Source: Dictyostelium discoideum (lineage: Eukaryota). From it: DNA of 64,000 bases. The notes under the pieces are model-generated. The model did no database searches and was not told where the DNA came from. It saw only the letters and a list, made by a program, of their open reading frames with translations. The position numbers and the translations under genes were made by a program. The DNA lies in assembly GCA_000004695.1 (NCBI GenBank), contig CM000154.2, positions 3,840,001 to 3,904,000 on the forward strand. The letters are read 5' to 3'. Shown here piece by piece: positions 15,304 through 39,006 of the stretch (its first letter is position 1; the number at the start of each line of letters is the position of its first letter).

Positions 15304-15504
15304 AAAAAAAAAAAAAAAAAAAAGACACAAATCAAAAACCACCCTATCTTTTATTATTAATAATTATAATTAAGAGAATCACCATCCCCAAAAAAACACA
15401 TTGGAAATATATATATTATATGGATGACAGCATCCAAACAATATTTATAAAATAATAATAATATATTATTTCAATTAAGAAAAAAAAAAAAAAAAAAAAA
15501 AAAA

Positions 15505-24407: not shown

Positions 24408-24763
24408 ATTGGAAGAGCAAATTAATTTTTTTTTTTTTTTTTGAATTTAATAAATTTCTATTTTTGGTTTAATTTATTTATTTAATATTAAAGTATGATC
24501 CTATATTATTATTAGGGTTTTTGTAACCTATTAAAAAAATTACAAAATAATCGTTGTTTTATTGCCAATTATAAATATAAAAATCAAACCCATATACTTC
24601 TACTCATGATAAAACACCAATACATATACCTATAAATAACTTTTACTAAAATGAATTTATGAAAAAGCTAATTTAATTTTTAACCAATTTATTCTATCAA
24701 TTATTTAAAAATTTAAATTAAAATTTAAATAAATTGTTAAAATGGTTTTTCGGTTGGTTATTG

Positions 24764-24800
<37 letters not shown>

Positions 24801-25107: not shown

Positions 25108-25376
25108 ATGATCAAATATCTTATTTTAATTTTAATTTTAATTTTAAATATATATTATTCTAATGGGTCTGATTGCTCATATTTTGACAATGGAAGAAAT
25201 ACTTTATATGATTTAAAATCCTTTTTTTATTATCCGTAAATATTAAAATTTAAAATAATTTATTTAATTTCCCAATTCATACTAACCTTTATCATTATAA
25301 ATTTTAAATAAAAATATAAAAATAGAGATGGAACTGTGTACGTATTTTTTTTTCTATAAATAAATTACTAATTTAA

Positions 25377-25440
<64 letters not shown>

Positions 25441-27890
25441 GTTTCAAAGAATATTATAGATCCCAAGCTTTGAGCAGTAAATGGGATATTAGTTTTAATT
25501 TATGCTCTGAAGGACAATTGAGTGTTTGTCAAGGAAAAGGAAAATATGCATGTCAAACAAATTATGATTCTAATTGGGTGTTTGTGGATGTATATGATTT
25601 AGGAAGTTTAAATAAAACAAATTTCATGGATGATGGTGTTACATTAACATATAGAGGGTATATAAGTCCCGATTCCCCTAGAGGATGGTGTATAGAAGGT
25701 TCATATGAAGTAAACTATAGAATAACAAATTTCAATTTATTGTGTGATAAGGGTGTTGAGAATGTTGATGTATTAAATGCAACGGAACCAATCGGTTGTT
25801 ATTACAATGTTACTCTTAAAAGTAAACAATTTTGTGAATGCCCATTGCAATGTAGCCCACCACATGGTAAATGTGTTAATGGTGAATGTGTTTGTGACCA
25901 ATTTTCAAATGGAACATCTTGTGAAAAATTGATAATTACTATTGATTCTGTAGTCAATACAACAATTAATGGTGGAATAGGGTATATTCATTTCAGTAAT
26001 TTTTCAATGACTTTTCCATTATTTCAGTTAAAAATCGGTGACCTTTATTGTACCAATGTTATGTTATTAAACAGTTCAACACTTCAATTTACAATCAGTC
26101 CTGGTATTGGAATTCACAATGTTGAAATTATTAATGGAAATTCATCATACTTGTCATATGATTCATTTGGATATCAATGTAATTCTGATTGCTCTCCTCC
26201 CCATGGTGAGTGCAATTTAACACTTGGAAGTTGTTCATGTGATACTCAAACCAATGGAACAAATTGTGAAAACTTGATAATTACTATTGATTCTGTAATA
26301 AATACAACAATAAGTGGTGGGATTGGGTATATTCATTTCAGTAATTTTACAGTGACTTTTCCATTGTTTCAATTAAAAATTGGAGGTGTTTATTGTACAA
26401 ATGTTAAATTATTAAACAGTTCAACACTTCAATTTTCTATTGGTCCTGGTAATGGTATTCACAATGTTGAAATTATTAATGGAAATTCATCTTACTTGTC
26501 ATATGATTCATTTGGATATCAATGTAACACTGCTTGCTCTCCTCCACATGGTGAGTGCAATTTAACACTTGGAAGTTGTTCATGTGATACTCAAACTAAT
26601 GGAACAAATTGTGAAAATTCAAAATTGTTTTTAAATAACATTATCCCAACTGATGAAAATGGTGGTACAACTTATTTATATGGTTATTTTGGAAATACAA
26701 CTTCTAATTTATCAATAATGATTGGAGATAATGATTGCACAAATATTGAACAACTAAATGAAACATTAATTAAATGTGACGTTGGAAAGGGTTCTGGTTT
26801 TAAAGATGTGATTTTAAAAGATAGAGATTTAATAGTACATGTTTTGAATTTATTTCAATACTTTAAACCAATAACAACAAACCCACCAAAGCATTGTATT
26901 GATAATTGTGGTGCTCCAAATAATGGAATTTGTACTTCTACAGGTTGTATGTGTATTTCACCATGGATAGGTAATGACTGTAAATCTAAAATTATTTCAA
27001 TTCCTCAACCATCATTAAATTATTCGAATCCAGTTACAGACATACAATTGATTGACAATAAGGTAGATACTAAACTATTCCGTTCACTAGTATCAATTGT
27101 AAAATTAAGAGAATTAGATTTCCAGTCTAAACAAGTGAATTCATTTACATTTATAGAATGGGAATATTATAAAATTAATGAATCAACAAGCCAATATAAA
27201 TCAAATATTACAAATTTAGGTTTAACTACTTTTATTACTGTAACTTTACAATGGTTTGAAAATGAAACTAATGTTGTATTTGTAAATCAAAATATTAAAA
27301 TGAACCCTTCATCAATTAAATACACAATTGAGATTTCTGAATATAAATTCAGCAGTAACTTAAATCAATTACAATTAGTAATGATGGCTTCATTGTCTAT
27401 TAATAAAACAAATGATATTTGTTCAAATAAAGAGTTTAGTGAAACTTCAAGTGGTGATGATTCAAATTATTTAAAAATTCAAATTGATGATCATTCTTTA
27501 TATGGTAGATTTATAAAAAGAGCATTAATTGATTCAATTCCAAGATCAATTGATAATGTTCCTTTGGACTCTTCAATGAATCAAGTTGATAGTGCCTCTT
27601 TGTCTCAATCATATATTGGTATTTCAGTTCCTTTTTTTAAAAAACAAATAATAATTGATCCTGATTTTTCAGTACTTCTCAGTTCATCTTCTGATTCTTT
27701 CAAATCTGAATCTTCAATTTGTTCATTTAATAAAGAATCAAAATTTTCAGGTGGATTAATTTCAGCAATAGTTTTATGTAGTTTTTTTGTATTTGCAAGT
27801 TTAATAACAATGGTTGCATATAGTTATTATAAAAAAAGATATGATAGAAATATAATGAAAGAAATTCGAACAAAATTATCTAAAAGGTAA
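25108..27890 (+). CDS. Type-I membrane protein, paralog A: signal peptide exon (25108-25235) plus main exon (25460-27890); Cys-rich N-terminal domain, 4 EGF-like modules alternating with 3 IPT/TIG-like domains, TM, short cytoplasmic tail (about 852 aa)
   Basis: Exon 1 encodes 'MIKYLILILILILNIYYSNGSDCSYFDNGRNTLYDLKSFFYYP', with a GTAAAT donor and TTATAG acceptor in phase. EGF-like 'CSPPHGECNLTLGSCSCDTQTNGTNCEN'. TIG-like 'IITIDSVINTTISGGIGYIHFSNF...LKIGGVYCTNVKLLNSSTLQFSIGPGNGIHNVEII'. TM 'GGLISAIVLCSFFVFASLITMVAY' followed by KKRYDRN. Confidence 0.8.
25932..26615. repeat. Intragenic tandem duplication, two copies of 342 bp (one EGF+TIG module) inside paralog A
   Basis: 'ttgataattactattgattctgta...' recurs at 25932 and 26274 with about 90% identity across 342 bp (114 codons). 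Paralog B has only one copy of this module. Confidence 0.8.
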
Positions 27891-28511
27891 GTTGAACCAT
27901 ATATGTAAAAAAAAAAAAAAAAAAATAATTAAATAAATTAATAAATAAATAAGTAAAATAAATGAATAAATTTAAATGGTTATGACTGTTATTCTTTAAA
28001 AAAAAATTTCTCTGCTTTCTAAATTTTTATTTTTGTTTTTAAAATTGTGTTTATGTTAATTTTATAATCTTTTTTGCCAAATGAACCTTTTACCTATTAC
28101 TCAATTGTTACACAATCATTTTATATAGGAAATTGCAAACTACAATAAGAAATTAAAACATATTATTGATTTAATCTAATTGTTTTTATTGGTCTTTTTT
28201 TTTTAGTTTTTTTTTTTTTTTTCAAAAGAAAAAAAAAAATTTATTGGGTCCGACTTTTGTTAAAAATGGCTTTAAAATCTAAATTTAAATCCACCAATCA
28301 ATTTTTTCTTTTTTTTATTTATAATTATATTTAAAAAAAATTAAAACTTAGAAGAAAAAAATTCAAATTTATTCAAATTTATACCAAACTCTTTTTTCTG
28401 ATAGAGTTTTATTAATTCCATAAAAAAAAAAAAAAAAAAAAAGAAAAGAAAAAACAAAGGATAAAAAAAAAAAAAAAAAAACATTCTTTGATTATTTTTA
28501 AACAGTTTGTA

Positions 28512-30914
28512 ATGATATACTCTATTTTAATTTTAATTTTAATATTATATATACAATATTCTAATGGATCTGATTGTTCATATTTTGACAATGGGAGAAA
28601 TACTTTATATGACTTGAAATCCTTTTTTTATTATCCGTAAATATTAATATTTAAAATTTTTTTTCCTATTCTTACTAACCTGATTTATTATAAATTTAAA
28701 AATATTCAAATAGAAATGGTACTATGTATGTATATTTTTTATCTTTATATAAATTTCTATTTTTATATTAATTTTTTTTTTTTTTTTTAAAAAAGCTTTA
28801 AAGAGTTTTATAGATCCCATACTATGTTAGGTAACTGGGATATTACTTTTAATTTATGTGCTGAACATCAATTGAGTATTTGTAATGGAACAGTAAAATA
28901 TGCATGTCAAACAAATTATGGACCTGATGGGTTTTTTTTGGATGAATATGATTTAGGAAGTTTAAATAAAACAAATTTCATCGATGATGGTGTTATATTA
29001 ACATATAGAGGGTATATAAGTCCTAACTCCACCAGAGGAACGTGTACAGAAGGTGCATATGAAGTAAACTATAGAATTACCGATTTTAATTTATTGTGTG
29101 ATAAGGGTGTTGACAATCTTGATGTTTCAAATGTAATTCAACCAATTGGTTGTTTTTATAATGTTACTCTTAAAAGTAAAAAATTTTGTGAATGTTCATT
29201 GCAATGTAGCCCTCCACATGGTAAATGTGTTAATGGTGAATGTGTTTGTGATCAATTTTCAAATGGAACATTTTGTGAATACTTGATAATTATTTTTGAT
29301 TCTGTTATAAATACTACAATTAATGGTGGAATAGGGTATATCCATTTCAGTAATTTTTCATTGGATTCTCCAATATTCCAATTAAAACTTGGTGATGTTT
29401 ATTGTAATGATGTCATATTATTAAACAGTTCAACAATTCAATTTTCAATTGGTCCTGGTATTGGTATTTACAATGTTGAAATTATTAATGGAAATTCTTC
29501 ATATTTGTCTCTTAATTCATTTGCATACCAATGTAATACTGATTGCTCTCCTCCCCATGGTAAATGCGATTTAATACTTGGAAGTTGTTCATGTGATACT
29601 CAAACTAATGGAACAAATTGTGAAAATTCAAAATTGTTTTTAAATAATATTGACCCAACTGATGAAAATGGTGGTACAACTTATTTATATGGTTATTTTG
29701 GAAATACAACTTCTAATTTATCAATAATGATTGGAGATAACTATTGTATGAATATTGAACAAATAAATGAAACATTAATTAAATGCGACGTTGGAAAGGG
29801 TTCTGGTTTTAAAGATGTGATTTTAAAAGATAGAGATTTAATAGTACATGTTTTGAATTTATTTCAATACTTTAAACCAATAACAACAAACCCACCAAAA
29901 CGATGTATTGGTAATTGTGGTGCTCCAAATAATGGAATTTGTACTTCTACAGGTTGTATGTGTATTTCACCATGGATAGGTAATGACTGTAAATCTAAAA
30001 TTATTTCAATTCCTCAACCATCATTAAATTATTCGAATCCAGTTACAGACATACAATTGATTGACAATAAGGTAGATACTAAACTATTCCGTTCACTAGT
30101 ATCAATTGTAAAATTAAGAGAATTAGATTTCCAGTCTAAACAAGTGAATTCATTTACATTTATAGAATGGGAATATTATAAAATTAATGAATCAACAAAT
30201 CAATATAAATCAAATATTACAAATTTAGGTTTAACTACTTTTATTAATGTAACTTTACAATGGTTTGAAAATGAAACTAATGTTGAATTTTCAAATCAAA
30301 ATATTAAAATGAACCCTTCATCAATTAAATATACAATTGAAATTTCTGAATATAAATTCAGCAGTAACTTAAATCAATTACAATTAGTAATGATGGCTTC
30401 ATTGTCTATTAATAAAACAAATGATATTTGTTCAAATAAAGAGTTTAGTGAAACTTCAAGTGGTGATGATTCAAATTATTTAAAAATTCAAATTGATGAT
30501 CATTCTTTATATGGTAGATTTATAAAAAGAGCATTAATTGATTCAATTCCAAGATCAATTGATAATGTTCCTTTGGACTCTTCAATGAATCAAGTTGATA
30601 ATGCTTCTTTGTCTCAATCATATATTGGTATTTCAGTTCCTTATTTTAAAAAACAAATAATAATTGATCCTGATTTTTCAGTACTTCTCAGTTCATCTGA
30701 TTCTTTCAAATCTGAATCTTCAATTTGTTCATTTAATAAAGAATCAAAATTTTCAGGTGGATTAATTTCAGCAATAGTTTTATGTAGTTTTTTTGTATTT
30801 GCAAGTTTAGTAACAATGGCTGTATATAGCTATTATAAAAAAAGATATGACAGAAATATAGTAAAAGAAATTCAATTAAAATTATCTAAAAGACAAGTTG
30901 ATATATATATGTAA
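28512..30914 (+). CDS. Type-I EGF/TIG membrane protein, paralog B: exons 28512-28636 and 28814-30914 (about 741 aa)
   Basis: Same two-exon structure as paralog A, with identical splice-site context 'ttattatccGTAAAT...ttttatAG|atccca'. It is about 85-95% identical to A over shared regions but lacks one EGF+TIG module. Confidence 0.8.
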
Positions 30915-31530: not shown

Positions 31531-31552
31531 TATTATTTTTTAACAGTTTGTA

Positions 31553-33765
31553 ATGATTAAATATTTTTAATTTTAATTTTGATATTCAATACAACATTCT
31601 AATGGATCTGATTGTTCATATTTTGACAATGTTAGAAATACTTTTTATGACTTGAAATCCTTTTTTTATTATTATATCCCAATCCATGTACGATAGATGG
31701 AATATTTATTTTAATCTATGCTCTGAACACAAAATAGGTATTTGTAATGGAACAGCAAAATATGCATGCCAAACAAAATATGATTCTAATTGGGATATTC
31801 AGGATGTAAATGATTTAGGAAGTTTAAATAAAACAAATTTCATGGATGATGGTGTTACATTAACATATAGAGGTTATATAAGTCCCGATTCCCCTAGAGG
31901 ATGGTGTTCAGAAGGTGCATATGAAATAAGCTTTCTAATTACCAATTTTAATTTATTGTGTGATAAAGGTGTTGACAATGTTGATGTATCAGAGGCAAAA
32001 GAACCCATTAGTTGTTATTATAATGTTACTCTTAAAAGTAAAAAAATTTGTCAATGTCCATCGGCACTGCAATGTAGTCAACCACATGGTAAATGTGTTA
32101 ATTGTGAATGTGTTTGTGATCAATCTTCAAGTGGAACATTTTGTGAAAATTTGATAATTACAATTGATTCTGTAATTAATACAACAATTAATGGTGGGAT
32201 TGAGTATATCCATTTCAGTAATTTTCCAATGACTTTTCAATATTTGAATTAAAAATTGGAGGTGTTTATTGTACAGACCTTGAAATATTAAACAGTTCAA
32301 CCCTTCAATTTACAATCAGTCCTGGTATTGGAATTCACAATGTTGAAATTATTAATGTATTTTTTCATACTTGTCATATGATTCATTTGGATATCAATGT
32401 AATTCTGATTGCTCTCCTCCCCATGGCGAGTGCAATTTAACACTTTGAAGGTGTTCATGTGATACTCAAACTAATGGAACAAATTGTGAAAATTCTACAT
32501 TGTTTTTAAATTACATTGACCCAACTGATGAAAATGGTGGTACAACTTATTTATTTGGTTTTTTTGGAATTACAACTTCTAATTTATTAATAAAGATTGG
32601 AGATCATGTTTGTACAAATATCGAACAACTAAATGAAATATTAATTAAATGCGATGTTGGAAAGGGTTCTGGTTTTAAATATGTGATTTCAAACGATAGA
32701 GATTTAACTGTACATGTTATGAATTTATTTCAATACTTTAAACCAATAACTATAAACCCACAAAACAATGTGTTGCTCTAAATAATGGAATTTGTACTTC
32801 TAAAAGTAGTGTATGTATTTCACCATGGATTGGAAATGACTGTAAATCTAAAATTATTTCAATTCCTCAACCATCATTAAATTATTCGAATCCAGTTACA
32901 GACATACAATTGATTGAAAATAAGGTAGATACTAAACTATTCCGTTCATTGGTATCAATTGTTAAATTAAGAGAATTAGATTTCCAGTCTAAACAAGTGA
33001 ATTCATTTACATTTATAGAATGGGAATATTATAAAATTAATGAATAAACAAATCAATATACATCAAATATTACAAATTTATGTTTAACTACTTTTATTAA
33101 TGTAACTTTACAATGGTTTGAAAATGAAACTAATGTTGTATTTGTAAATCAAAATATTAAAATGAATCCTTCATCAATTAAATATACAATTGAAATTTCT
33201 GAATATAAATTCAGCAGTAACTTAAATCAATTACAATTAGTAATGACGGCCTCATTATCTGTTAATAAAACAAATGATATTTGTTCAAATAAAGAGTTTA
33301 GTGAAACTTCAAGTGGTGATGATTCAAATTATTTAAAGATACAAATTGATGATCATTCTTTATATGGTAGATTTATAAAAAGAGCATTAATTGATTCAAT
33401 TCCAAGACCAATTGATAATGTTCCATTGGACTCTTAAATGAATCAAGTTGATAGTGCTTCTATGTCTCAATCATATATTGGTATTTCAGTTCCTTATTTT
33501 AAAAAACAAATTATAATTGATCCTGATTTTTCAGTACTTGTTCATCTTCTGATTCTTTCACATCTGAATCTTCAATTTGTTCATTTAATAAAGAATCAAA
33601 ATTTTCTGTGGATTAATTTCAGCAATAGTTTTATGTTGTTTTTTTGTATTTGCAAGCTTAATGACAATGGTTGCATATAGTTATTATAAAAAAAGATATA
33701 ATAGAAATATAGTCAAAGAAATTAAAATAAAATTATCTAAAAGACAAGTTGAAAGTAATATGTAA
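31553..33765 (+). pseudogene. Decayed third paralog (C) of the EGF/TIG membrane protein family
   Basis: Homologous to A and B end-to-end but broken into four ORFs in different frames (31686-32252, 32500-32781, 33162-33437, 33438-33680). There is an in-frame stop at codon 6 of the signal-peptide exon (ATGATTAAATATTTTTAA). The intron is largely deleted ('ttattat|tatatccca'). Several frameshifts follow. Confidence 0.8.
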
Positions 33766-34031
33766 AAAAAAAATAAAAAAATAAAAAAATTAACAAATAC
33801 ATAAAAAAAAAAATTATCCTCTCTTTTTTTCTTTTTTAAATATATACATATAAATGTAAAATAAGATGAAATAAAAAAAAAATAAAAAAATAAAGAAAAA
33901 TAAAAAAATAAAATCCTACAGCTGTATGCTTTTTAATTAATGTGAAATTAATTCATTTCCTTAAACTCAAAACAATTATTTAAAAAAAAAAAACAATTAA
34001 AATAAGAAAAAAAAAAAAATTTAAATCATAA

Positions 34032-34380: not shown

Positions 34381-34924
34381 AAAATTGAAATATGAAAAAA
34401 AAAAATACGAAAAAAAAAAGATTAAAAAAAAAAGTGATCATACATAAAAAAACTAAATTAATTTTTTAATTTTTTTAATTTAATTTAAAATAATTTAATT
34501 TAATTTTTTTTTTTTTTTCTGGGAGTATTAATTAAAAATTAAAAAAAATATTTATTTTTGTTTCCATAAGATTTTTTAACTGCCACCGGTTATATTTTCC
34601 TGAAATATGGGTATTTGGATTTTTTTAAATTTAATAAAAAAAAAATTTTTATTGGATAGGGTCCCCCAAACCGGTTTTTTGATATTTAATAGTGTGGAAC
34701 CCCTCTTGGGCGAGTTATTTTTGGAAAAAAAAAAAAAAAAAAAAATTGATTTTTTTTTTTTTTTTTTTTTTTTTTTGGTTAATTTGTTGAATCAGACTGC
34801 CTGTTATCCTCTCTTTTTTTTTTTTTTTTTTTTTTTCCTTTGACCATTTTTTTATATATATTTTTGTGCCTTATTTAAATAGTTGGCTTTATACAGAATT
34901 AATTTTTTTAAAAATTTTGATTTT

Positions 34925-34958
<34 letters not shown>

Positions 34959-35069
34959 CACGATTATTAAAATTAATTTTCAAATCGTAAATCCGAAATT
35001 TTATTTTTTTTTTATTTTTTTTTTTAGTATTATGTATTTATTTTTTTTATTTTTTTTTTTCTTAAAATA

Positions 35070-35193: not shown

Positions 35194-36827
35194 ATGACAA
35201 CAAATTCAAAATCATTAAATTTATTACAATCATTAACATGTGGAATTTGTCAAAATTTATTTAAAGACCCAAATACATTGATACCCTGTGGTCATGCATT
35301 TTGTTTAGATTGTTTAACAACCAATGCATCAATTAAAAATTGTATTCAATGTAAAGTTGAATATACAACCTATATACCAAATCATCCATTAAAACAAATG
35401 ATTGATTGTTTAGATCAGAGTAGTAATAATAATAATAGTAATAATAATAGTAATGGTGAAAATACAAATAATAATAATAATATAATTAATAATGAAAGAA
35501 GTTCATTTAATGGTTCAAATTCAAATTCTATAATTGGATTTATAGAAGGATTAAGTGATAGTACTAGTAATGGTCGTAGATTTAGTCAACAAGATGGATT
35601 AAGATACTCAAGTGGTTTATTAGATGGTAGTAATAGTGGTGGTAGTAATAATATTAGATATTGTATGGAACATTATGAACATTATTATGCATTTTGTAAT
35701 GATTGTCAAGCACCAGTTTGTCCAAGTTGTTTATTGACAACACATAATCGACATGGAATGATACCGTTAACTAAAGATTCAATCGCTACAAAGATGAAAG
35801 AATACAGAGACATTGTTCAATCATTCAAAACAAAGATGTCTCAATACAAGGATAACATAACATTATATCAAAAGGAGATTGAACTATTGGATAGTACATT
35901 CTTACAATGCAAGCAATCGATTCAATTGATGATATCAAATCTACACAAAGTATTAAAATCACGTGAAACCTATCTATTGAAAGAAATTAGTAGCATTCAC
36001 TACGCCAGCCACATGGAACTAACCGACCGTTCAAGCACATTAGAGAATGAAATCAGTGAAATGGAGAAACTAATCGGTAATGGTACTGACAAATTTAAAG
36101 ATGCTACAGAGATATTAAATAATCAAAATTTGAAATTTGAATTTCTTGAACAATTTCATCATAGTCGTACTCAAAGTAAAAAGAACCAAAATCAAGATGG
36201 ATTGAAACCACTCTTTAAAACCGACCTTTTATTCTACAAAGCAAACAACGAACGTGTAACCGAAATGATTAACGGCACCTTGGGTAACATATCACTATTG
36301 ACATTCCCATTGGACGATATTGGTGAAGTCAACATTTGGGATGAGCCAAAGGAGAATATTTGCATTGAAAAAGTTAGAACCAACTCCAATGGCATTGAAG
36401 AGTTTGAAGTGAAATATGGAAGTTTAAATAAATTGATTGAACGTCTTTGTCTACCCAATTGCTACGATGACAACTATGTTAACATTTTCCTTCTCACTTA
36501 TCATAGTTTTTGTTCCTCTAAAAAACTTTTGAAAAAGTTAATTGAACGTTTTACAATTCCAGAGGATTTAGAAGCTCATGGTCTAACTCTAGCAAGTATT
36601 CATGAAATTCATATGAAAATTAGAAGCGTCCTTGTCAAATGGATTAATGAATATTCACCAAAATTCGATCAAGATACAATTCATTTATTCCAAAATTTCA
36701 ATTGTAGAATGCAATCTGAATATACAAGTATTCAAGAAATTGAAAATTTATTATTAAATTCAAATGAAAATTCACCTTCAATAACTTCTTCACAATCTTT
36801 ATCATCACAATCATTATATTCACAAAC

Positions 36828-36858
<31 letters not shown>

Positions 36859-38028
36859 TCTAATAATCTACAACCAACAATTCAAACTAATCAAACACTA
36901 TCATCAAATATAAATAATATAACAATTTCAAATTTAAATAATAGTAATTTAACCAATAATGGTACATGTAAAATACAAAATTCACCACCAAAAAATTATC
37001 AACAATCAAATTATTCATCAATATTTAATGGTCCATCATCATCATCCTCTTCTTCACCATCTTCACCAATTTTAAGTTTAAATTCATTAGCATTAATTAA
37101 TGGTAATGATAATTTAGTTTTTGAATCACCATTAAATTCACCACGTAATAATAATAATAATAATAATAATAATTCACCAAGATCATCATCATTTGGTGCT
37201 TCATCAGCTTTAAAATTTAATAGTAATAATAATAGTTTAAATATAAATAGTAATATGGGTGGTCCATATTTTCCATCACCAAGTTCACCAACCACCAATA
37301 ATATACCAAATATTAATCATTTTTCAAGTAGGATTTTATCATCATCAAAGAATCTGGAATTTAATGATATTGATGAATTTGAAATTGCCAAACAATTGAC
37401 TTTAATAGAATTTGAAAACTTTGGACGTATAAAACCAATCGATCTATTGACATGTGTAGATTTAAAACATAAAACACCTCATATCACAAACATTATGGAA
37501 AGATTCCATAATATCTCCACTTGGGTTAGTACTACCATTGTTAGAGGTGAAAATTTGAAAAACAGAGTTAAAATCGTGAATAAATTCATAAAGATAGCAG
37601 AACATTTGAAAAATTTAAATAATTTCAACTCACTAACTGCTATATTAGTGGCAATTCAAAGATCAACAGTAACTAAAAAAGATTTGGTTAAACAATCTGT
37701 AAAGATTATCACTGATCTCGAGAAATTAATGTCCTCTGATGACTCTTATTCTACCTATAGAACTCGTTTAGCTCAATGTTCACCACCTTGTGTTCCATAC
37801 ATTAGTATCTATCTTCAAGATATTATGGATTTAGAGAAAAAGAATCCTTCAAATATCATTGTTCAAACCTCTTCAAATAAAACTCAAGAATTTATTAATT
37901 TCACTCGTCGTTCTTTAATTAGTAAAGTAATCTTAGATTTAGCAAGTTATCAACGTTTTGGTTATTCAACAATTTTACCAATTTCAAATATTCAAGAATA
38001 TTTAAATGTACATATAGATGAATTATAA
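35194..38028 (+). CDS. RING finger + B-box + coiled-coil (TRIM/RBCC-like) N-terminus fused to RasGEF N-terminal and RasGEF (CDC25-homology) catalytic domains; single exon, 944 aa
   Basis: RING 'CGICQNLFKDPNTLIPCGHAFCLDCL...CIQCK'. B-box 'YCMEHYEHYYAFCNDCQAPVCPSCLLTTHNRHG'. A coiled-coil stretch follows. RasGEF-N 'LNKLIERLCLPNCYDDNYVNIFLLTYHSF'. RasGEF 'IAKQLTLIEFENFGRIKPIDLL...NFNSLTAILVAI...YLQDIMDLEK'. Confidence 0.85.
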
Positions 38029-39006
38029 AAAAAAAAAAAAAAAATAAACTAAAAATAAATAAACTAAAAATAAATAAAAATATAAACTTAAAGATATTTA
38101 AAAAAAAAAAAACTATGTTGCATAGAAAATAAAAAAATAAAAGTAAAAAAAAAAAAAGAGTCGACAAACCCCACCAACCTATTCCTTAAAATAAATAAAA
38201 AAAAAAAATAATTCTGTCTTTTATATATTTTCTTTTTTTTTTTTTTTTTTTTTTTATTATTTTTTTTTTTTTTTTTTTTAATTTGTTTTATTTTATTTTT
38301 AGATATTTTTAAAATATATAATATTTATAAAAACTATTTTAATCCCACCAGTGAGATTTAATGCCTGGCGCCCACGTCGATTTCTTTTTTTTTTTTTTGA
38401 AATTTTTTTTTTGAAATTATTTTTTTTTTTTTTTTTATAATTTATTTTGAATTTTTCAATATTTTATATATTTTAGTCATATATATATAAAAACCAAATT
38501 GTATGATTTTTTAATTAATTAATTTATTTTATTTTTATTTTTATAATATTTTAATTTATTTGTTTTATGTAAATTATTTTGTCTTTTTTTTTTATACACC
38601 AACAAAACACCCCACATCGACCAACGATTTTTTTTTTTTTTTTTTTTTAAAAAATTTTATTTTATTTTTTTTTTAATTTTTTTTTTTTATTTTTTTATTT
38701 TTTGAATTTTTTCAATAACTTTTTTGTATCATAATTTGCACACATTGTTTTTTTTATCATTATTTATTTTATTTATACACATTGTTTTTTTACACACACT
38801 AAAATTTAATATATTATATTAACCATTCATCTAATTCACACCACTCAAAGGTACATTAATTAAAAATCAAAAAAAAAAAAAAAATTTCAAAGAAAAAAAA
38901 AAAAAAAAACAAATCAATCATCAAGTCTTCAACTTTCTATATACACAAACAACTCTTAAAAACTCAAACATACAAATATTATAAACTAAATATATATATA
39001 CATAAA

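Follow-up and report, generated by a model that had tools for sequence, protein, structure and literature searches.

The window analysed here is a 64,000-nucleotide (nt) stretch of Dictyostelium discoideum DNA (GCA_000004695.1, contig CM000154.2, positions 3,840,001 to 3,904,000), which matches chromosome 5 of strain AX4 and has a G+C content of 14–29% in 2-kb windows, with a mean of ~22%. All coordinates below are positions in this window, and all features lie on the forward strand. Three paralogous genes, A, B, and C, stand head to tail in it, and the first of these, gene A (~25108–27890), is the subject of this report. Its open reading frame (ORF) at 25470–27890 is 100% identical to DDB_G0290285, which by best explanation encodes a putative type I membrane glycoprotein of the ComC family. 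An initial annotation of this DNA had pointed to two adjacent and similar segments inside the gene and had read them as a very recent duplication. We propose instead, with a probability of roughly 0.85, that they represent a genuine and old in-frame tandem duplication of a 345-bp module, consisting of an IPT/TIG and an EGF unit, in the stalk of the protein, and that the copy number of this module was later changed by recombination.

Gene Structure and Domain Organization

Gene A is proposed to consist of three exons, namely exon 1 (25108–25235), which codes for a signal peptide MIKYLILILILILNIYYSNG..., a micro-exon of 12 nt (25326–25337, AGATGGAACTGT), which encodes ...DGTV..., and the main exon (25442–27890, stop codon included), which holds the ORF. 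Joined together they give an uninterrupted protein of 862 amino acids (aa), the N-terminus of which agrees with full-length orthologue models. Among the exon combinations tested, the one with the 12-nt micro-exon is the only one that keeps both the frame and the orthologues' YYP[ND]GTVFKEYY motif; the three-exon model is a prediction from sequence. The models deposited for AX4 are shorter, since that of DDB_G0290285 (820 aa) starts at MELCT and that of its paralog DDB_G0290349 (710 aa) at MVLCI, in each case inside a tiny internal exon and without a signal peptide. Three-exon models of A and B restore the hydrophobic leader and the YYP[ND]GT[VI]FKE motif of the orthologue models, and the apparent lack of the signal-peptide exon in the deposited ones would mislead predictions of localisation or of the secretome.

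The domain order in the main exon is an MRH-like domain, a cysteine knot called EGF-a, two modules of one IPT/TIG and one EGF unit each, an unduplicated IPT/TIG domain called TIG2, an EGF unit (DUF7949), the ComC supersandwich domain, a transmembrane helix, and a short tail; with the signal peptide in front, the architecture would thus be signal peptide, MRH-like domain, EGF, [IPT-EGF] x2, IPT, EGF, ComC supersandwich domain, transmembrane helix, and short tail. The C-terminal half is recognized by Pfam with ComC_SSD (PF22933; 70.6 bits against a cut-off of 24, E 2e-19, ORF residues 541–736) and, directly before the supersandwich, DUF7949 (PF25820, an EGF-type family; 44.3 bits against 27, E 2e-11, residues 478–508). 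Both families score above their cut-offs in gene B also. The Pfam TIG family (PF01833) matches the whole gene A protein with 36.2 bits against 20.9 (E 5.9e-09) and finds three stretches in A and two in B; the best stretch in A is TIG2 (26619–26900), which scanned alone scores 26.9 bits against the same cut-off of 20.9. EGF-a (25833–25928), located before the first module and read from the sequence and its translation, has Pfam EGF_Tenascin and EGF_Teneurin matches at residues 124–152 that remain below threshold.

The modules themselves are more remote from the profiles. Scanned alone against Pfam, each module gives no TIG match at E ≤ 1, and the module EGF gives EGF_laminin, EGF_2, and EGF_Teneurin at E 0.14–0.5, below the gathering scores. 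A hidden Markov model (HMM) of the module matches TIG2 weakly (~20 bits), which suggests that the modules are distant relatives of TIG2. The cysteine pattern C-x3-C-x6-C-x6-C-x-C-x8-C can be read from the sequence in both copies, and the translation of each module contains six N-x-S/T sequons. An AlphaFold2 model based on 25 family members shows seven strands and then two short hairpins in each module, which is the strand pattern of TIG2, with a predicted local distance difference test score (pLDDT) of mostly 70–85. Because of this fold, the six-cysteine pattern, and the weak profile homology to TIG2, the module appears to be in essence a seven-strand Ig-like sandwich of the IPT/TIG type joined to a six-cysteine EGF-like knot, and the EGF-like and TIG-like content that the initial annotation gave to each unit is largely borne out.

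Foldseek against the PDB was run with the whole chain, so that the assignment of its matches to the module and to the N-terminal domain is tentative. The top matches are the IPT arrays of plexin A2, A4, and A1 and of Met (E 9e-9 to 3e-6), and the IPT/TIG domain of EBF3 is matched as well. The MRH domain of OS-9 was also found (probability 1.0, 20% identity, root-mean-square deviation 4.5 over 103 columns, E 6e-3), together with domains of CI-MPR. Pfam gives no match in residues 1–127, and the UniRef name of the DDB_G0290285 protein is "MRH domain-containing protein"; the domain is probably MRH-like, of a lectin type. A long C-terminal helix at residues 761–791 of the model covers GLISAIVLCSFFVFASLITMVAY, and with the predicted hydrophobic leader in the proposed exon 1 a type I topology is proposed.

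At its 3′ end gene A reads ...SKR-TAA (27885–27908), followed in frame by GTT GAA CCA TAT ATG TAA, where paralog B (30892–30914) and the orthologues read ...SKRQV[DE]xYM at the C-terminus. Through the CAA>TAA change AX4 loses six conserved residues at the very end of the cytoplasmic tail, which form the motif QV[DE]xYM, and the region is identical in L006, the nearly AX4-identical assembly described below. The stop codon lies within a string AG/GTAAGT that resembles a splice donor.

The Tandem Repeat in Gene A

Positions 25908–26617 form a head-to-tail direct repeat with a period of 345, 2.1 copies, 90% matches, no indels, and a score of 1189, the sole long-period array that Tandem Repeats Finder reported. 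Self-comparison at a lag of 345 finds 332 of 365 positions identical (91.0%) between 25908–26272 and 26253–26617, and beyond the edges of the repeat the identity at this lag is a background of ~30–40%. The repeat is far above chance. It stands in phase 0 within the long ORF, begins between two codons, and is open in both copies, so that the in-frame internal tandem repeat of the initial annotation is real, as is its figure of ~90% nucleotide identity. The geometry needed correction: the unit is 345 bp or 115 codons, one codon more than the 342 bp and 114 codons given before, and the earlier span of 25932–26615 clips ~24 nt at the 5′ end.

The first copy (u1) occupies 25908–26252 (345 bp) in the register of Tandem Repeats Finder, or 25929–26273 in the domain register of IPT/TIG followed by EGF, and the second (u2) occupies 26253–26597 (345 bp; domain register 26274–26618). 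The module HMM gives 231.8 bits for u1 (ORF residues 154–268) and 227.5 bits for u2 (residues 269–383). They differ at 33 nucleotide sites and 14 amino-acid positions, and their identity is patchy, at 86.8% in the 5′-most 205 nt and 96.2% in the remaining 160 nt. The longest block of perfect identity is 50 bp in length (26202–26251) and has its partner in the second copy at 26547–26596, according to the list of identity blocks.

Both edges of the array carry a short shared sequence. The last 21 nt of EGF-a (25908–25928, NGTSCEK) resemble the end of the module EGF and constitute the 5′ edge of the repeat, where a 20-nt stretch AATGGAACANNTTGTGAAAA is common to the end of EGF-a and that of the module EGF; this is a likely site of the founding unequal or illegitimate exchange. 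At the other side, a partial third repeat of 20 nt (26598–26617, AATGGAACAAATTGTGAAAA) represents the microhomology common to the ends of EGF-a and the module EGF, and it likely marks a breakpoint site of the original duplication.

Copy Number Across Lineages and a Probable Recombinant Deletion

The assemblies used for comparison were described by Holland et al. 2025 as Nanopore plus Illumina assemblies with chromosome-scale contigs, with "D. discoideum" CR116C and OT3A as diverged members and M4B and S6B as possible cryptic species (PMC12745789). The orthologue of gene A was picked in each lineage by synteny and lowest nonsynonymous divergence (dN) in the N-terminal part. Five assemblies give module counts of three in lineage W, two in AX4, two in Y, one in R, and one in T, in units of exactly 345 bp. 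The W orthologue (ACTFIW_008497, 941 aa) has three modules (3.0 copies by the repeat finder), that of Y (ACTFIY_001316, 866 aa) has two, and that of R (ACTFIR_002408) has one. A derivation of the single R module as a recombinant of W-type modules was also considered, and it has one compatible site, which is the ancestral state as well and thus uninformative.

The fifth assembly, L006 (GCA_054883475.1, a chromosome record of 5.29 Mb), has a single module, and we infer it to be the laboratory strain AX2-214. L006 equals AX4 over window positions 15306–40000 (24.7 kb) except for simple-repeat tracts and a deletion of 345 bp, with zero substitutions in unique sequence outside the repeat. At another locus AX2 and AX4 are 99.5% identical (PMC12745789), which fits the BLAST figures for L006. 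Its gene A lacks u2 as a separate copy: the one module present is of the u1 type at every diagnostic site up to 26201, switches to u2 at the diagnostic site after that (26252/26597), and then runs into the sequence that follows u2 in AX4. The crossover interval 26202–26251 is exactly the longest run of perfect identity (50 bp), and such a position is the signature expected of unequal homologous recombination, provided that the L006 assembly is correct. Since u2 has 33 private differences, the two-copy allele is not derivable from the one-copy allele, and the one-copy allele would be the derivative. In a haploid asexual lineage it may have arisen by unequal sister-chromatid exchange, single-strand annealing, or slippage, a class of mechanisms suggested by the observed junction. 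The initial annotation had taken the locus as evidence for variation in domain number by unequal crossing-over, and orthologues with one, two, or three modules together with this precise u1/u2 recombinant deletion support that part of its claim.

Another possibility is that the single module of L006 is an assembly collapse or a consensus error, and that AX2 and AX4 both have two modules. The array is a tandem repeat in a contig otherwise identical to AX4, and a true structural difference between sister laboratory strains is a priori rare. However, the array is only 710 bp long and would be spanned by single Nanopore reads at the 79x coverage of the AX2-214 assembly (PMC12745789), and for W and Y the same pipeline returned arrays of three and two copies. 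The switch from u1 to u2 is moreover clean and falls inside the longest identity block, as would be expected of real homologous recombination, while copies 9% apart, if collapsed and polished, should more likely leave a mixed consensus. We thus regard a collapse as unlikely.

Besides the deletion, which takes in the recombinant site at 26252, the substitution-type differences between L006 and AX4 lie in simple-repeat tracts at 24744–24800, 34460–34996, and 38260–38263 (poly-A and TAATT-type), and 17 further indel events are spread over the region. Real length variation may underlie these differences, or else a sequencing or assembly error in one record or the other.

Age and Origin of the Duplication

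Divergence between the copies was calibrated on the syntenic locus from five long-read assemblies. The copies u1 and u2 have a dN of 0.060 and a synonymous divergence (dS) of 0.283, with a dN/dS of 0.21 and no stops or indels, which points to purifying selection on both copies for a long time. The neighbouring single-copy RasGEF gene has a dS of 0.062 between AX4 and R and of 0.105–0.109 between AX4 and Y and Z, so that u1 and u2 are 2.5–4.5 times as far apart at silent sites as RasGEF is between AX4 and the sister lineages. Orthologous modules have a dS of 0.20–0.23, and the gene A orthologues 0.20–0.25 in the N-terminal and 0.13–0.17 in the C-terminal part. By these measures the intragenic copies are diverged at least as much as the lineages. 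AX4, lineage W (at both of its junctions), and lineage Y share exactly the same inter-module junction, AATGGAACAAATTGTGAAAAC followed directly by TTGATAATT, and this speaks for a single old origin. A protein tree of 54 modules places the 16 modules from the chromosome-5 cluster together in a clade supported by 100% bootstrap, outside of which fall the modules of D. firmibasis and those of a second subfamily (117 codons, 1–4 copies). On the scale of the family the duplication appears not to be ancient, having arisen within the D. discoideum complex.

A mosaic ancestry of the array was considered, in which the two modules, already diverged, were joined by unequal crossing-over between paralogs, one of them A-like and the other B- or C-like. 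When u1, u2, B, and C are compared, their parsimony-informative sites disagree, and the three groupings receive 4, 5, and 5 of them; five sites group u1 with B and u2 with C, and five group u1 with C and u2 with B. In the tree the first module of lineage Y goes with the B-type and the second with the A-type, with weak support, and the cluster itself is a place where gene number varies from 2 to at least 5 and where A and B evolve in concert in their 3′ halves. Against such an origin, u1 and u2 of AX4 both fall in a loose A-type group with the modules of W and R in the protein tree, neither of the two is clearly nearer to the B or C module than the two are to each other, and the array is flanked on both sides by A-type sequence orthologous to W_A, R_A, and Y_g1. 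A chimeric origin therefore seems quite improbable.

A rival built on the reading of the initial annotation is that the second module arose very recently in the AX4 lineage by unequal crossing-over and that B keeps the ancestral single-copy state. The copies are indeed adjacent, in frame, and 91% identical; the paralogs B and C and the orthologues in R and T are single-copy, and the one clade of cluster modules places the duplication after the split from D. firmibasis. That B, ~3 kb downstream, has a single module (29262–29606) is correct. "Very recent", however, does not fit with 33 differences and a dS of 0.28 where RasGEF has 0.06–0.11, nor with a junction common to the diverged lineages W and Y. 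Moreover, u1 and u2 (91.0%) are no closer to each other than u1 is to the module of pseudogene C (90.1%), whereas a truly recent duplication in a related subfamily is by comparison 94–97% identical, and the single copy of the AX4-identical assembly combines u1 and u2, so that it descends from the two-copy state and does not precede it. A duplication of so late a date is very hard to reconcile with these values.

An expansion in the AX4 reference, which is a 2005 Sanger assembly of an AT-rich and repeat-rich genome, is likewise very unlikely, although a single module stands in a Nanopore and Illumina assembly that otherwise matches AX4 over 24.7 kb: the 33 differences of u2 from u1 are private to it, it differs by 11–14% from the B and C modules with no other source in the window, the u1/u2 differences are distributed as in coding sequence (dN/dS 0.21, with neither stops nor indels), the junction from u1 to u2 recurs independently in two other long-read assemblies, and copies 9% different would be easily separated by Sanger reads. 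Of the earlier concern about the assembly, the part on expansion is very unlikely to apply, given the constrained u2 and the shared junction, and the part on copy number is a real question raised by the one copy of L006.

It was further considered whether the two modules are what is left of an ancestral array of three, given that relatives in D. firmibasis, D. citrinum, and D. dimigraforme have 2–4 modules of 117 codons; this was rejected, as the cluster modules form their own clade with 100% support.

The favoured scenario of an old duplication would then run as follows. A single duplication probably occurred in the ancestor of the D. discoideum complex, after the split from D. firmibasis and after the duplication that separated genes A and B, likely when the similar 20-nt ends of neighbouring EGF units recombined unequally or illegitimately. 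Both copies have been retained under purifying selection, as their dN/dS shows, and homologous unequal recombination between them would have continued to alter the module number, as suggested by the counts and the L006 junction, with the direction of change read from the private differences of u2. In the AX4-identical assembly, the putative AX2-214, one unit would have been lost by a crossover in the 50-bp perfect block.

Several points weigh against this scenario. The dating by dS presumes that no sequence was exchanged with the paralogs, and the dS of the unit is uneven, 0.39 in the 5′ part and 0.15 in the 3′ part; the conflicting sites and the uneven identity indicate some gene conversion or mosaicism. 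The one-copy state of L006 was read from the assembly only and may reflect a collapse or a mixed culture, and the assembly was identified as AX2-214 because of its sequence identity with AX4 and by elimination within the BioProject. The mean pLDDT of the AlphaFold2 model is moderate (65.9), with most of the ectodomain at 70–85. The loss of the C-terminal motif by CAA>TAA may mean that gene A of AX4 is partly degenerate. Finally, a function in stalk length is inference only, and a search of the literature for DDB_G0290285, DDB_G0290349, their UniProt accessions, or ComC together with lagC found nothing.

Possible Function and Significance

Each module may serve as a rigid glycosylated spacer, in which case the number of modules would set the reach of the N-terminal lectin-like head from the membrane. 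It can be imagined further that module number is a fast-changing and selectable trait which differs between sister laboratory strains, with two modules in AX4 and one in AX2-214, and alters the projection of a glycan-binding head; we consider this extension unlikely. If true, it would amount to a stalk-length "dial" for cell-cell or cell-prey recognition in Dictyostelium, comparable to the repeats of yeast adhesins, and it might also mean an unrecognised phenotypic difference between the two most used laboratory strains. Should L006 indeed be AX2-214 and its single copy be real, the two standard laboratory strains would have different ectodomains in one of their surface receptors, which would matter for comparing phenotypes of adhesion or development.

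Changes in domain number by unequal recombination in surface proteins built of repeats are already textbook knowledge. From a social amoeba, the locus contributes an unusually clear case, with one, two, and three modules in five chromosome-scale assemblies, a conserved inter-module junction that dates the first duplication, and one derivative allele whose crossover is confined to a 50-bp interval. The family with an MRH-like head and a ComC supersandwich domain is unstudied, and the possible difference between AX2 and AX4 would be of modest interest.

Comparison with Known Systems

In D. discoideum, ComC ("communication mutant C") is a protein with EGF domains, a signal peptide, and a transmembrane segment (PMC4931340, PMC2873529); it is needed for normal aggregation, and its mutant aggregates aberrantly (PMC2873529, PMC4931340). 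Gene A shares with the ComC/ComC_SSD family its C-terminal half, that is, the EGF unit (DUF7949), the supersandwich, the transmembrane helix, and the short tail, with both Pfam models above their cut-offs. The relatives P0030–P0032 (1368–1392 aa, annotated as EGF-like domain-containing) have only this C-terminal part in common with gene A (33–42% of the query covered), and their N-terminal Pfam domains differ from those of gene A; they are not established as ComC. The N-terminal part of gene A consists of the MRH-like domain followed by a short IPT-EGF array.

The stalks of plexin and Met are the best structural matches of the gene A model (Foldseek E 9e-9 to 3e-6, probability 1.0), and like it they have type I receptor ectodomains in which small disulphide knots and Ig-like IPT sandwiches alternate. 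They differ from it in sequence (13–17% identity) and by low whole-chain TM-scores; unlike them, gene A lacks a sema domain as well as a cytoplasmic kinase or GAP domain, and its knots are EGF-like and not PSI. The match thus appears to be a resemblance in fold and architecture, with no evidence of orthology.

Fungal cell-wall adhesins such as FLO1 and ALS reportedly vary in the copy number of intragenic tandem repeats. Common to them and gene A are in-frame extracellular coding repeats in a surface glycoprotein, the number of which is variable among strains and changes by recombination between units. In gene A, however, there are one to three folded units of 115 residues, 9% diverged, instead of many short and nearly identical Ser/Thr-rich repeats, and with units so few and so diverged a much lower rate of change is expected than for the adhesin repeats.

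Within Dictyostelium, the Tgr family with its tgrBC locus likewise consists of TIG/IPT surface proteins in tandem clusters, and in both the Tgr and the gene A clusters gene number and content vary among the same set of genomes. The tgrBC locus has been described as a hypermutable TIG-domain allorecognition locus with strong diversification of tgrB1/C1 (PMC12745789). What sets the gene A family apart is its definition by the ComC supersandwich together with the MRH-like head, and its location on a different chromosome, and the dN/dS of 0.14–0.3 among gene A orthologues indicates purifying selection, in contrast to the strong diversification of tgrB1/C1. The main text of the same study contains no occurrence of "ComC" or "EGF" (PMC12745789).

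Paralogs and the Tandem Cluster

Paralog B (DDB_G0290349; 28512–30914) has proposed exons at 28512–28636, 28714–28725, and 28796–30914 and encodes 751 aa. Paralog C (31550–33780, outer boundaries approximate) is a pseudogene with fragmented reading frames and frameshifts; its leader exon reads ATG ATT AAA TAT TTT TAA, ending in a stop, and its single module (32130–32472) carries two 1-bp deletions and has stops in its translation. The pseudogene is identical in L006.

A and B are mosaic when 25470–27890 is compared with 28824–30914. The first ~240 aligned codons, corresponding to the N-terminal domain, EGF-a, and the module, are 79–93% identical in windows of 40 codons, whereas the half with the ComC supersandwich and the transmembrane helix is 94–100% identical, mostly 96–100%, with several stretches at a dS of 0. 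The 3′ halves thus fit with gene conversion or concerted evolution, and the 97–100% identity of the A and B parts downstream of the array serves as an example of recent exchange here. It was also considered whether the module or the N-terminal domain is under strong diversifying selection, as one 5′ window of 40 codons between A and B has a dN of 0.27 above its dS of 0.14, and no such claim is made; for the N-terminal part as a whole, orthologues have a dN/dS of ~0.2 and paralogs one of about 0.5 (0.56 for A and B). The dS between AX4 and its sisters is two to three times higher in the ComC-like gene (0.13–0.25) than in the adjacent RasGEF gene (35194–38028; 0.06–0.11), for which exchange among paralogs or a weaker codon constraint is a possible reason.

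In the syntenic loci between the upstream gene of 1129 aa and the RasGEF gene (L001–L005), the number of ComC-like genes is two in Z, three in AX4, three in R, four in Y, and at least five in W. The cluster in other lineages includes truncated and fused gene models, and the W gene P0019 (546 aa) is entirely without EGF-a and the module. In P0018 (D. dimigraforme ACTA71_008948) an N-terminal DDE-transposase segment (PF01609, PF13359) is annotated as fused to the receptor, which is probably a transposon beside the gene that was merged into the gene model.

The second subfamily mentioned above consists of proteins 55–59% identical, with 1–4 IPT-EGF modules of 351 bp (117 codons), and no AX4 protein of it surfaced in the search. 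One of its genes in lineage R, ACTFIR_009896, is located on another chromosome (L007, 6642–7994), and its modules 3 and 4 are 94–97% identical at the nucleotide level, a value that marks them as a truly recent module duplication in the same superfamily.

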